DNA of 5,069 nucleotides. Source: a virus. Lineage: Duplodnaviria > Heunggongvirae > Uroviricota > Caudoviricetes. The notes beneath the pieces were generated by a model. The model was given only the letters and a program-made list of their open reading frames with translations, ran no database searches and was not told the DNA's origin. Each line of letters opens with the position of its first letter. Within the stretch, counting starts at the first letter, position 1. A program made the position numbers and the translations under genes. This document shows, one piece after another, positions 1-5,069 of the stretch. The stretch lies in IMG/VR virus record IMGVR_UViG_2751185971_000010; one strand, given 5' to 3'.

Positions 1-90
1 AAGGAGATCAGTGAAGGTAATTTAAAAACGGTTCTGTGAAAGTGACACGAACCGATCTCCATCGATGTTACTCACCGATCTCCTTCACGG
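1..90. repeat. Cluster of short GATC-containing repeats: 10-bp direct repeat ACCGATCTCC (51-60 and 74-83) plus inverted partial copy AAGGAGATC (1-9)
   Basis: Read directly: ACCGATCTCC occurs twice 23 bp apart; positions 1-9 AAGGAGATC are the reverse complement of GATCTCCTT at 77-85. Three GATC (Dam) sites lie at 6-9, 54-57 and 77-80. The cluster sits at the point where lom homology is lost and is cut by the window edge. Confidence 0.4.
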
Positions 91-167
91 TAATACGCAC
101 ATGCAGGCGCACCGGATACAGCCAGACAGATGGCTGCGGACAAAATGGCTGCACAAACTTTACGCAT
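72..167 (-). pseudogene. lom: lom (Ail/PagC/Lom family outer-membrane protein) 5' remnant: signal peptide retained, then unrelated sequence and a stop after 31 codons
   Basis: Minus strand: RBS GAGAGG, 5-nt spacer, ATG at 165-167. Translation is MRKVCAAILSAAICLAVSGAPA followed by CAYYREGDR and TGA at 72-74. The first 22 residues match the lambda Lom signal peptide as I recall it (MRKLYAAILSAAICLAVSGAPA…). No other minus frame restores Lom-like sequence, so the gene is truncated or replaced from about position 101 leftwards. Position after J and its terminator is the lambda lom position. Confidence 0.55.
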
Positions 168-188
168 AATTACCTCTCGCTTTTCTGC

Positions 189-215
189 AATAAAAAAGGC
201 ACCATTTCTGGTGCC
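189..215 (-). terminator. Rho-independent terminator downstream of J
   Basis: Stem GGCACC (198-203) / GGTGCC (210-215) with a 6-nt loop. On the minus strand it is followed by TTTTTTAT (plus 190-197 are A-rich), about 19 nt after the J stop codon and upstream of the lom ribosome-binding site. Confidence 0.6.
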
Positions 216-234
216 CGTATCTGGGTTATAAAAT

Positions 235-3200
235 TCAGCTAATCGTGATGCCTGCAGTGGCTTTCTTCATCACAACAACCAGCAAATCGCTGATACTTGC
301 TGTGGGATACCAGCCATTTACCAGCCATGCCGATACAGAAAACTCCAGCGTCATGTGACCGTGACCGGCAGGCATATCAATAACACCCGTATATATCAGC
401 GTATTATCCAGGGTCGTTCGGTTATAAATTTCAGCACCGTTTTTCTTCACTATCAGGCGGCATGACGAATAAATATTGTTATTCTTCCGCTCATGTTTAG
501 CACCGCGAAACGCCACCGCGGGAATAACAATTTGCCGATCAAACGGCTGATCGTCATAAACCCTGACGGTAATGGTCCCTGATGGCCACCTCTCCGGTGC
601 CCGGGAGTCCCGTGGGAAAGGTTTGCCCACTGTTTTAACGAGATCGCCTTCAATCTGGTTCGCGGACAATTTTCCCAGAACCCGACAGTTCTTATTAATC
701 GTGACGTTGTTGAGCGTCCCGGAGTTCGCGTTCACGTTACCGCTGATATCGGCATTTTTCGCCGTCAGCCGTCCGCCAGGTGTCAGGGAAAATGCCGGAG
801 GATTACCGCCGCTGGTTATGGTCGGAGCCGTCAGGCGTTTCAGGAACACGTCGTTCATGAATATCTGATCGCCCTGACCAACAAACATCGGCTTTGTGTT
901 GCCATTCGCAGGATTAATCATCGCAATCCTGTCTGCCGCCAGCAGCACCTGACTCTGCATTCCTGCTGGCGTATTCTCAATACCGGCACCGATACCCGCA
1001 ATATAAAGGCGTCCGTCCTTCATCTGTTGCAGCTTCACAGCCCACATGCTGTTCAGATTATTATTTGTATCAACCTGAACCTTCTGTATCTGCTGGATTG
1101 CCGCACTCTGGTCTTTCAGTTTCTTATTGACAGTCTGCGTGATTTCATTGCTGACATCCGTAATGGACGTCCTGATTTCAGCCAGGTCAGGCGCAAGCTG
1201 ACCTTTATCAATCTGCGTCCACAGCTCCTGAGCCAGATGGGTTTTCCCTATCTCGCCTTTGAAAAAATCCAGATAACCGGATGCATCATCACTCGGCTGA
1301 CCAACAGCCTCCACGAATGCCGATTTGCCAACGGTGTTCACACTGCGAACGTAAAAATAATAATCATGGCCCGGTTTGATATTGATACTGGCGGCTATCC
1401 AGTACAGCCCCGTGCCAAGATAGCGCGCTGTGGTTTCAACCTTCCTGATATCGGTAATCCGCTTTTCCGAAAACCAGAACTCAAACTGTACCGTCGGGTC
1501 ATAAACGGCAAGATGCGGCGTGGCGGTTATCTGAAAATAGCCCGGCGTCAGCTCAATCCGCGACGGCGCTGCCGGTGCGGCAATCCGGAACGATACCGAC
1601 GCCGGATCGCCCTGCTGTCCCCACGCATTTACCGCCCGGACCGTCAACATGTAACGCCCCAGCGCCAGCTGCCTGAAGCGGTATGTGGTTTCCGTCGTCC
1701 GGGCCGTGCTGACCAGCCGCTCACTGCCATCGTCCGCTGTCACGGTCAGGCGAAGCAGGAAGCTCACGCCCTTCACCACCTTCGGCGTGTCCCAGCGGGC
1801 CAGTACCTGATACTCCCCGCTGTCTGCGGTGACTTCGGCAGTCAGGTGCTGCACCGCTGGCGGCGTGACACCATTCACCGTGCCGCTCTGGTCGCCGTCA
1901 AAGTGCGCCCCGTTATCCACGATGGCTTCTTTTTCCGGTACATGCTGCACGGCGGTGATGGCATACGTGCCGTCATCGTTCTCACGGATACTCACGCAGC
2001 GGAACAGGCGCTGGCGCAGCGTCGGCAGCTTCAGCCCCCACACGCTGTATTCGGCAACGCCGTCAGGAACACGGCTCACTTTCACCTTCACGCCGTCGGT
2101 GACGGACTGGACCTCCACGCTGACCGGATTCCCCTGTCCGTCAACCAGGCTTATCAGCGTGGTGCCGGAGGATGGCAGCGTGATTTCACGGTCGAGCGTC
2201 AGTGTCCGCGTCTGGCTGTTCACCGCCAGCACGCGCCCGCCGATGCTGATACCCGCATAGTCATCATCACAGATTTCAATGACATCGCCCGGTACATGGC
2301 GAAGCCCTTCTGCACCCACGCTGAAGTCCACGGTCTGCGTTTCCAGCAGCTCCGTTTTAATCAGCCACAGCCCGGCGCGGTGTGCCTGCCCCCGGCTGGT
2401 ACAGCCAAAGGCATCCATCTTCGTGACGTTACGACCGTAACGGGCAATGGCCTGCGTATCTTCAACAAGCTCTGTCGCCGTCTCCCAGCCGTTATCCGGG
2501 TCAATCCAGTTCACCTCAACGGCATTATGGCGGTCCTTCAGGGCGCTGAAGCTGTAGCGGAACGGCGCGCCATCATCCGGCATCACCACATTACTGCGGT
2601 TATAGGTCCACACCTTATCCGACGGTCGGTCCTGCACGAACGTCAGCGTCTGCCCGTTCCATACCGGCATATAGCGCATCGCCGAACAGAAATCACTGAG
2701 CACATCCCACGCCTTACGCTGTGTGGTCAGGTAAGCGTTACAGGTGATGCGCGGCTCCGTGCCACCAAAGCCATCCGGCACTGACTGATCGCAATACTGG
2801 CCGATGACATACAGCGCCCATTTGTCCACATCCGCCGCACCAAGACGTTTCCCCATGCCGTAGCGCGGGTGGGTCAGCATATCCCACAGACACCATGCCA
2901 TGTTGTTGCTGTATGCCGGTTTAAACGTCCCGTCCCAGATACCGCTGTATTGCCGCGTCTGCGGGTTATAGTTCGATGGCACCTGCAGAATGCGCCCGCG
3001 AAGATGATAATTACGGCTCACCTGCTGGCTGCCGAACTGTTCCGAGTCCACCTGCACGCCGACCAGTGCCGTGTTCGGGTAGCACTGTTTCACATCGATG
3101 ATTTCAGTGTATGACGACCAGAGCGTTTTGTTCTGCAGCTGGTCTGTGGTGCTGTCCGGCGTCATCCTGCGCATCCGGATATTAAACGGGCGCGGCGGCA

Positions 3201-3714
3201 GGTTACCCACCACCACCGAGGCCAGATACTGCGAGGTGGTTTTGCCCTTAATGGTGATGTCTTTTTCCGTCACCCAGCCACCGTTACGTTGTATCTGAAC
3301 CAGCAGGCGGACTTCCGACGGATTCCTGTCACCCTTTGAGGTGGTTTCCACCAGTGCCTGCACACCGAAGGTAAAGCGCAGACGGTCGATGTTTGCAGAC
3401 GTGATGGTCCGGGTGATCGGCGTGTCGTATTTCACTTCCGTACCCAGCACCGTCTCGGAACCGGAGGATTCAAATCCCTCCGGCGGTGTCTGCTCCTGCT
3501 CACCTGCCCGGAACACCACCGTAACACCGGAGATGTTGGTATTCCCCTCACTGTCCAGCACCGGTGTACTGTTCAGCAGCACGCTTTTTAATCCATCCAC
3601 CGGACCTTCAATCGGCCCTTCGCTGATGGCATCGATCACACTCAGTAATTGCGTGGATTTCAGGTTGTCCTTCGCTTCGCGCGGGGTATGCCCCTTACTG
3701 CTTCCTTTACCCAT
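235..3714 (-). CDS. J: Host specificity protein J (tail tip / central tail fibre, 1159 aa) with a divergent C-terminal receptor-binding region
   Basis: Single 3480-nt minus-strand ORF with an SD-like GGAG/GAGGA before the ATG. Residues 1 to ~790 ([54 protein letters not shown]…) are near-identical to lambda gpJ as I recall it. From ~790 the sequence diverges (different coiled segment, ~27 extra residues, recognisable but substituted C-terminal domain). Lambda gpJ is 1132 aa by my recollection. Confidence 0.95.
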
Positions 3715-3780: not shown

Positions 3781-4119
3781 TTATTTACATGCATTAACAC
3801 TATCAGCAAAAATTTTTGGCGTTAATGCTGGTACACGTTCATAAAGAGTAAAACTACTGCCATTTCCTGCTTTTTTGATATCAAGCACAATATCATATCC
3901 CCCCATAGCCTGTGGAACTAAAAGGCTTACCCCATTCTCAATAGGAAGGGATGTTATAGGTGTTCCATTACCAGCCCATTGTCTGGATATGCAGCCTGAC
4001 AATTCATCAATATTTTTTAATGAATTACCTTCCATTACAGGTTTTCCGGATTTTACGTAATCCAAAGATTTACATCCTGTTAAGGCAATAATCGTGCAGA
4101 ATAAAATCGTTTTGTTCAT
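3781..4119 (-). CDS. Small predicted outer-membrane lipoprotein (112 aa precursor), a moron inserted between tail genes I and J; function unknown
   Basis: Minus-strand ORF. Using the ATG at 4117-4119, the N-terminus MNKTILFCTIIALTGC is a typical lipoprotein signal peptide: positive n-region, hydrophobic core, lipobox L-T-G-C. The +2 residue after the lipid Cys is Lys, not Asp, consistent with outer-membrane sorting. Two further Cys (SGCISRQ and NACK at the C-terminus) could form a disulfide. The gene sits in a ~420 bp block much more AT-rich than the flanking tail genes. The ORF track opens at an upstream TTG (4129-4131); I prefer the ATG. No convincing Shine-Dalgarno was seen. Confidence 0.65.
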   Translation of the reverse strand: MNKTILFCTIIALTGCKSLDYVKSGKPVMEGNSLKNIDELSGCISRQWAGNGTPITSLPIENGVSLLVPQAMGGYDIVLDIKKAGNGSSFTLYERVPALTPKIFADSVNACK

Positions 4120-4154
4120 ATAGCTAACCAATAGAATAATTATCAGTGTTCGAT

Positions 4155-4191: not shown

Positions 4192-4833
4192 TTACCGCCC
4201 AATTACCACAACCTGACCACCATCCCCTTCATCTGCCGTGCTGATCTCCTGAGATGCCACACGTGACCCCACGCGCATTTCACCGTACAGAACAGGCAGG
4301 ACATTGCCCTGGGCAACCATGTTATCCAGTGAGGAGAAACAGGTGTTCTGTTTGCCGTTATCCGTTGTCTGTGTACGGGGAGTTCTGGCTTTCGGTGCCA
4401 GCATCTGTGCAACACCGCCAAGCGTCATACTGGCACCGAGAGAAAACAGCAGATTACTCGCCATAATTCCTACCCCCGGCATCCATATAGCAACCGCCAT
4501 AACAGCTGCCCCCAGCACCGCCTGAAACACACCGCCACTTTTAGCTCCCACCAGACGCGGTACGATGTGGATCACGGCACCATTTGCCAGCGGCTCATTA
4601 AGACGGGCAGATAATTCGTTTTCGCCTGCATCACGCCCGGCAATGCGCACCTGATACCAGCCCTCATTCAGTTTCTGGCGAAACGCCGGGAGCTGTGTGG
4701 CCAGCGCCCGGATGGCTTCGGCCCCCGTTTTCACACGAAGGTCGATGCGGCGACCAAATCGTTGTAAATCCCCGTAAAGGCAGATGCGTGCCATGCCTGG
4801 TGACGCCAGAGGGAGTGTGTGCGTCGCTGCCAT
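4192..4833 (-). CDS. I: Tail assembly protein I (213 aa)
   Basis: Complete minus-strand ORF. The N-terminal ~55 residues (MAATHTLPLASPGMARICLYGDLQRFGRRIDLRVKTGAEAIRALATQLPAFRQKL…) and the C-terminal ~60 residues (…APKARTPRTQTTDNGKQNT.FSSLDNMVAQGNVLPVLYGEMRVGSRVASQEISTADEGDGGQVVVIGR) match lambda gpI as I recall it; the central hydrophobic segment differs. Position between K and J fits lambda gene order. Confidence 0.9.
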   Translation of the reverse strand: MAATHTLPLASPGMARICLYGDLQRFGRRIDLRVKTGAEAIRALATQLPAFRQKLNEGWYQVRIAGRDAGENELSARLNEPLANGAVIHIVPRLVGAKSGGVFQAVLGAAVMAVAIWMPGVGIMASNLLFSLGASMTLGGVAQMLAPKARTPRTQTTDNGKQNTCFSSLDNMVAQGNVLPVLYGEMRVGSRVASQEISTADEGDGGQVVVIGR

Positions 4834-5069
4834 TTGTCGGTGTACCTCTCTCGTTTGCTCAGTTGTTCAGGAATATGGTGCAGCAGCTCGCCGTCACCAC
4901 AGTAAATGGCGGCATGATTCGGCACCGATGAACCAAAACAGCACAGCAGCACATCGCCCGGCTGCGCCGCTGACAACGGCACCTGATACAGCCCTGTGGC
5001 CTCCAGATTATCCAGATAGAGATTCTGACCGTGACGCCACCAGTCATCCCCGCGATGAAAATCCGGCAT
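4731..5069 (-). CDS. K: Tail assembly protein K, C-terminal 112 codons only (NlpC/P60-like portion); 5' end lies beyond the window edge
   Basis: Minus-strand ORF open to the window edge. Translation (…PDFHRGDDWWRHGQNLYLDNLEATGLYQVPLSAAQPGDVLLCCFGSSVPNHAAIYCGDGELLHHIPEQLSKRERYTDKWQRRTH…) matches my recollection of the lambda gpK C-terminus almost residue for residue. It ends 103 bp inside the start of I in another frame, the same overlap I recall for lambda K/I. The Met at 5067-5069 is an artefact of the window edge, not the true start. Confidence 0.88.
   Translation of the reverse strand: MPDFHRGDDWWRHGQNLYLDNLEATGLYQVPLSAAQPGDVLLCCFGSSVPNHAAIYCGDGELLHHIPEQLSKRERYTDKWQRRTHSLWRHQAWHASAFTGIYNDLVAASTFV

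Follow-up and report, generated by a model that had tools for sequence, protein, structure and literature searches.

What interrupted the lom gene of this prophage, and whether the gene was deleted, replaced or disrupted in place, is the question raised by the left end of the window, i.e. the whole stretch of 5,069 nt analyzed here. The initial annotation had recognized a lom gene truncated after its signal peptide and proposed a deletion or recombination junction, with lom deleted or replaced in an actively remodelled accessory region. The genes of the window all lie on the minus strand, and those preceding lom, together with the element that separates J from lom, are the following:

4731-5069, minus strand: 3' part of K, an NlpC/P60 gene, cut by the window edge

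4192-4833, minus strand: I, intact

3781-4131, minus strand: moron ORF between I and J, encoding a putative lipoprotein of 116 aa (112 aa from the second ATG)

235-3714, minus strand: tail-tip gene J, intact, 1,159 aa, the upstream neighbour of lom, identified by Pfam GpJ domains and by the annotation of its matches

197-216, minus strand: terminator-like hairpin with a T-run between the J stop (235) and lom, consisting of an 8-bp stem with five GC pairs followed by TTTTTTATT

No Rfam family or structured RNA was found across the window. The moron ORF has a lipoprotein-like N-terminus (…LFCTIIALTGCKS) and no match in Pfam or NCBIfam.

Downstream of the hairpin, the leader and the start of lom are preserved, and the reading frame then runs into foreign sequence:

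168-196, minus strand: lom 5' leader with the ribosome-binding site GAGAGG at 178-173, identical to the sequence upstream of intact lom

100-167, minus strand: lom remnant encoding the signal peptide, CDS nucleotides 1-68 (codons 1-22 and two bases of codon 23)

167-72, minus strand: chimeric ORF of 31 codons, in which the Lom signal peptide is followed by CAYYREGDR from the terminus of an insertion sequence (IS); the stop TGA at 74-72 is codon 32

The product of the chimeric ORF is MRKVCAAILSAAICLAVSGAPACAYYREGDR. Its residues 1-22 are identical (22/22) to those of the intact 199-aa Lom WP_001233104.1 of E. coli CFSAN029787 (locus L002), and both the remnant DNA (100-167) and the GAGAGG site are identical to the intact lom region of that genome. 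At residue 23 tryptophan is changed to cysteine, and the alanine at residue 24 agrees with intact Lom by chance. Over window positions 100-330, comprising the ribosome-binding site, the J-lom spacer and the end of J, the identity to CFSAN029787 is 99.6%; the same DNA is present at 99.6% in several E. coli genomes, where J is followed by an intact gene for an “Ail/Lom family outer membrane beta-barrel protein.” Consistently, the Pfam family Ail_Lom (PF06316) aligns with residues 1-25 of the remnant on profile positions 1-25 (31.9 bits against a cutoff of 23, E 1.4e-7). When intact Lom was searched against all six frames of the window by tblastn, only residues 1-24 were matched (E 9e-11), all other matches having E > 0.3. 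Thus, no frame restores Lom, as the initial annotation had stated, and its reading of the signal peptide, the good ribosome-binding site and the stop at codon 32 was likewise borne out.

The remnant shares with lambda Lom and the Ail/Lom/PagC/OmpX family (PF06316), which comprises 8-stranded outer-membrane β-barrels, the position after J and a terminator, the ribosome-binding site and the N-terminal Sec signal peptide. By contrast, residues 25-199, i.e. the whole mature barrel of approximately 175 residues with its C-terminal ...GVGYKF signature, are absent from the window. Since there is no Lom sequence past residue 24 and the ORF stops at codon 32, it represents a gene remnant rather than a functional member of the family. 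No β-barrel can be made from it, and lom is therefore a pseudogene with a non-functional product, as had been presumed. The remnant had been likened to lambda Lom; the match to Lom of E. coli and Shigella prophages holds, but lambda Lom itself begins MRNVCIAVAVFAALAVTVTPARA (MRNVCIAVAVF...) and fits the remnant poorly. Comparison of the N-termini identifies the remnant as the Lom allele common in E. coli and Shigella lambdoid prophages, not lambda's own.

The sequence that follows the remnant, at window positions 1-99, is the end of a known transposable element, the IS21-family element ISEc12. It contains the following features:

1-99, plus strand: right end of ISEc12, identical over 99/99 nt to the last 99 nt of a 2,581-bp copy (locus L003)

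1-14, plus strand: 3' end of istB, the gene for the helper AAA+ ATPase, with the codons ...G D Q stop (TGA at 12-14)

51-63, plus strand: inner direct repeat of the right terminal inverted repeat, ACCGATCTCCATC, an R2-like putative IstA-binding site (direct-repeat family D2, 23-nt spacing)

74-99, plus strand: right inverted repeat, comprising the outer, R1-like repeat ACCGATCTCCTTC (74-86) and ending in ...ACGCA-3'; read as its reverse complement, TGCGTATTACCGTGAAGGAGATCGGT, it aligns with TGCGTATTTTCATGAAAGGAGATCAC of the left end

Among E. coli records, 2,260 contain window positions 1-100 at an identity of at least 99%. The surroundings are numerous and unrelated, on chromosomes as well as plasmids, and each of these matches adjoins a gene annotated as “IS21-like element ISEc12 family helper ATPase IstB.” The annotated istB of L003 ends at position 3014 of that locus, which corresponds to window position 14, and the C-terminus of IstB (...TEGDQ*) places GDQ* at window 3-14, so that the window holds only the last four codons of istB. 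Full copies with identical ends carry both istA and istB. The terminal inverted repeats of the IS21 family each contain two or more transposase-binding repeats, designated R1 and R2 at the right end, and the element is bounded by the conserved dinucleotides 5'-TG...CA-3', the terminal CA being a signature of the family (PMC10122671). Both features are recognizable here. The sequence ACCGATCTCC occupies 51-60 and, at a spacing of 23 nt, 74-83; it recurs in inverted orientation at 3-12, and its GGAGATC core also occurs three times in the left end of ISEc12; judged by their arrangement, these motifs would correspond to the R1/R2 and L1/L2 pairs of putative transposase-binding sites. The element ends with ...ACGCA at base 99, and the terminus, written as its reverse complement TGCGTATTACCGTGAAGGAGATC, forms an imperfect inverted repeat with TGCGTATTTTCATGAAAGGAGATC at the left end of full copies. 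In its right end, the terminal ...ACGCA, the paired GGAGATC-core repeats and the istB stop, the window agrees with the ISEc12 copies that RefSeq annotates on chromosomes and plasmids of E. coli, while it holds only 99 of the 2,581 nt of the full element; the genes istA and, for the most part, istB lie beyond the contig, together with the left end and the duplication. No promoter-like sites that could provide an outward promoter from the IS end, antisense into J, were found in window positions 1-400.

The position of the break was determined by aligning the window with independent copies of ISEc12 (three or four at the junction) and with intact lom:

99-100, no strand: boundary of the IS and lom, which falls within codon 23, behind nucleotide 68 of lom

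The IS copies agree with each other through base 99 and then diverge, while lom is exact from base 100, so that the junction lies precisely between 99 and 100. The alignment to intact lom that the initial annotation had proposed for placing the breakpoint thereby narrows its estimate of around 100 to a single position. A breakpoint at 94/95, to which BLAST extended the lom match, was rejected, since the independent IS copies are shared through base 99; the extension is due to ACGC at 95-98, a chance match of 4 nt between the IS tip (ACGCA) and lom (ACGCC). The recombination junction that had been suspected is thus a transposon insertion junction at the terminus of ISEc12, and an exact match, to the base, between break and transposon end is a signature of transposition, unlike what a generic deletion, an exchange of morons or a random chimera would produce. 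Of the proposal that lom was deleted or replaced, the truncation by foreign DNA stands, whereas nothing shows a deletion or replacement, the unrelated sequence being the right terminal inverted repeat of ISEc12. The suggestion to look for an IS element was a good lead, although the IS end is located inside the window and not beyond its left edge.

The same junction was found in none of 5,426 complete E. coli genomes, in no phage record and, searched as an exact 30-mer, in no GTDB representative, and it is also absent from other contigs that encode an identical J or an identical moron protein; nor is a gene for the exact 31-aa chimeric product on record in the assembly collection. In the public collection, only a single contig encodes this J protein, MIIX01000156.1 (GCA_001742995.1); with its 5,069 bp it is the window itself, and the evidence for the junction rests on this single draft assembly. 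The accession MIIX00000000 is that of FC1708 (FC14), an Indian clinical isolate that could not be serotyped and that sequencing assigned to Shigella dysenteriae serotype 3, ST148 (PMC5674244, PMC6563743); the species calls in the source paper conflict, with S. dysenteriae or S. boydii being obtained depending on the method. The isolate was sequenced by Ion Torrent with 400-bp chemistry and assembled as a draft with the AssemblerSPAdes 5.0 plugin. An artefact in which lom is intact and the IS end was falsely joined to the contig tip would agree with the single Ion Torrent draft and with a junction seen in no other genome searched. Nevertheless, the join coincides to the base with the terminal CA of the IS, which transposition predicts and a random chimera would be unlikely to produce, and contigs from de Bruijn assemblers usually extend one k-mer into a repeat before they stop. 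A false join is therefore very hard to credit.

The left edge of the window is accordingly an assembly break inside a repeated IS, and no biological or prophage boundary: the assembler could not get past the repeat, and the contig therefore ends after 99 nt of the IS. The length of this stub suggests a SPAdes de Bruijn k-mer of 99, which it would fit. The other end of the contig (5069) stops inside K, presumably at another repeat common to lambdoid prophages.

Taken together, a copy of ISEc12 most probably transposed into codon 23 of the prophage lom gene as a simple insertion of the full-length element, flanked by a target-site duplication and with the distal part of lom elsewhere in the genome. 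What can be read directly from the window is which sequences flank the junction, where exactly the junction lies and that the reading frame of lom is lost. Going by what is established for the family, transposition of ISEc12 would be carried out by the DDE transposase IstA together with the AAA+ ATPase IstB, and the 3'-OH of the terminal CA would attack the target in lom. Strand transfer would occur after lom nucleotide 68, one residue before the signal-peptidase site AWA/S, and would leave the right end of the IS (1-99, reading outward) abutting the 5' fragment of lom (100-167, minus strand). From the unchanged ribosome-binding site, translation would then yield the 22-residue core of the signal peptide and nine residues from the terminal repeat of the IS before reaching the stop. 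The element is predicted to have its full length of 2,581 bp, to be flanked by CATGC as a 5-bp duplication and to separate the lom remnant from a distal part that lies on another contig:

100-104, no strand: predicted target-site duplication CATGC, one copy in the window, the other expected beyond the contig, next to the left end of the IS; the prediction is modelled on eight other copies of ISEc12

For such a simple insertion, the reciprocal junction would consist of ...GACGCCCATGC (distal lom and CATGC) joined to TGCGTATTTTCATGAAAGG (left IS end), which in the plus-strand orientation of the window would read 5'-...TCAGACGCCCATGC/TGCGTATTTTCATGAAAGGAGATC-3'.

The prediction draws on eight other ISEc12 copies with both flanks available (L001, L003, L004 and L007-L011). 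All of them are simple insertions with duplicated flanks (5 bp in 7/8 and 6 bp in 1/8), which makes a simple insertion with CATGC the most likely outcome here. The duplications are CCTTG, CCCGT, CCTGG (twice), CTGGT, CCGGT, CTTTGC and GATAA; most begin with C and are rich in G/T on the 3' side, which hints at a weak target preference, the sample being too small to judge it. A preference of ISEc12 for targets resembling its own tip was also considered and dropped, as the eight flanks display no consistent pattern beyond C-rich duplications.

Only the proximal junction lies in the window, and the distal part of lom may well follow approximately 2.5 kb further on. The proximal junction would look the same if an adjacent deletion, an inversion or recombination between two ISEc12 copies had removed or relocated the distal part of lom and possibly the downstream tail-fibre genes, which is the nearest version of the earlier “deleted or replaced.” Shigella genomes are rich in IS-mediated rearrangements (PMC7373316), and the contig is short with repeats at both ends. 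Against such an event, the target duplications of the other copies are intact in 8/8 cases, i.e. there was no adjacent deletion, and J, I and the moron are intact, so that the window carries no sign of further prophage loss. A deletion or rearrangement at this site is therefore considered rather unlikely, though it is the least improbable of the alternatives.

The state of related prophages bears on the history of the insertion. Prophages that are 97.7-99.7% identical over the moron and J keep an intact lom of 199 aa at the same position, and since these closest relatives retain it, the intact state is ancestral. The moron upstream of J had been taken as a further sign of active remodelling, which does not hold: it is conserved in related Shigella and E. 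coli prophages, is annotated as “hypothetical protein” in 337 complete E. coli genomes, and is present in the relatives with intact lom, so that it provides no evidence of ongoing remodelling connected with the insertion. In one relative that shares the moron and J (L016, positions 10130-10860; GCA_043060205.1, DAYBAK010000101.1), no lom was called in the 730-nt gap after J, which suggests an independent lom defect such as a frameshift.

A further question is which form of the element resides in lom. A 114-bp miniature of ISEc12 is present at L010 2786-2899 on plasmid pM217_FII (NZ_AP018147.1), inside psiA of IncF plasmids. It joins a 15-nt piece of the left end to the final 99 nt via the 10-nt direct repeat AAGGAGATCA, carries no genes and is flanked by the 5-bp duplication CCGGT; it resembles a MITE derived from an IS21-family element. 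Its 99 nt are those of window 1-99, and because they are common to the miniature and the full-length form, the window by itself is compatible with either. Insertion of this non-autonomous element into lom, mobilized in trans by IstA/IstB, would account for the start of the window at the exact base where the two forms diverge, and the element is well represented, having both termini and a duplication in psiA and its specific junction in 170 of 5,426 complete E. coli genomes, nearly always on plasmids. There is also a second, diverged copy beside a chromosomal CRISPR array. However, right ends of the full-length form are approximately 25:1 commoner (4,386 places vs. about 170), the plasmid copies share one site (psiA) and give little sign of recent mobility, and an insert of 114 bp would more likely have been assembled through with 400-bp reads. 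Moreover, the 99 nt would be equally well explained by the presumed k-mer of 99. A miniature in lom is therefore regarded as improbable, and the full-length ISEc12 insertion is preferred. If a miniature were nevertheless present, it would represent a fresh chromosomal insertion of a trans-mobilized, MITE-like IS21-family derivative, and the contig break at the point of divergence would reflect the co-existence of both forms in the isolate. The second miniature, at L022 1501-1580 on the chromosome of an E. coli ST38 strain (NZ_OZ204848.1), is shorter (approximately 80 nt), has both termini and directly follows the last repeat of a type I-E CRISPR array (cas1e-cas2e-CRISPR), where it appears to interrupt the repeat-like sequence GTGTTCCCCGCG with no clear target duplication visible.

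With ISEc12 inserted at codon 23, the 31-residue product may still be translated from the untouched leader and start of lom. Judged by its residues, it would keep the n- and h-regions of the signal peptide, and the motif A-C-A could possibly be cut by signal peptidase I, leaving a heptapeptide. The new Cys23 was considered as part of a lipobox and rejected, since APA-C has no L, V or I at position -3.

A closely similar event is found in E. coli JB2 (NZ_CP182203.1), in which the same IS interrupts the same gene in the same J-lom-tail fibre context. There, lom is split into two annotated pseudogene fragments, and both halves of the gene and both ends of the IS are visible. The JB2 insertion is independent and at a different site, with approximately 405 nt of lom on the J side and the duplication GATAA. 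In the same strain, the slot between I and J is occupied by sodC on the opposite strand instead of the moron.

The insertion into lom is therefore of an already known kind, a textbook case of IS insertion and pseudogenization of a prophage accessory gene in an IS-rich Shigella. It resembles the IS-mediated pseudogenization described for Shigella and EIEC (PMC7373316) in the loss of a non-essential accessory gene in an IS-rich, host-restricted lineage and in contigs that are broken at IS, but the element is not one of the five classic expanded IS of Shigella (IS1, IS2, IS4, IS600 and IS911). Beyond correct annotation its significance is slight. A fitting annotation is “lom pseudogene, interrupted by ISEc12,” with the contig end marked as an assembly break in a repeat instead of a deletion or the boundary of the prophage, and the case illustrates that contig-terminal IS stubs in draft genomes can pass for “unrelated sequence.” Furthermore, it adds a small data point, the inactivation of a prophage outer-membrane gene by ISEc12 in Shigella (ST148), a lineage group not highlighted for this element. 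ISEc12 was reported to have expanded in E. coli ST131 and to be “not present in Shigella” lineages sampled (Hawkey et al., 2020; PMC7373316); by contrast, the ST148 isolate analyzed here, for which S. dysenteriae serotype 3 was reported, carries it.
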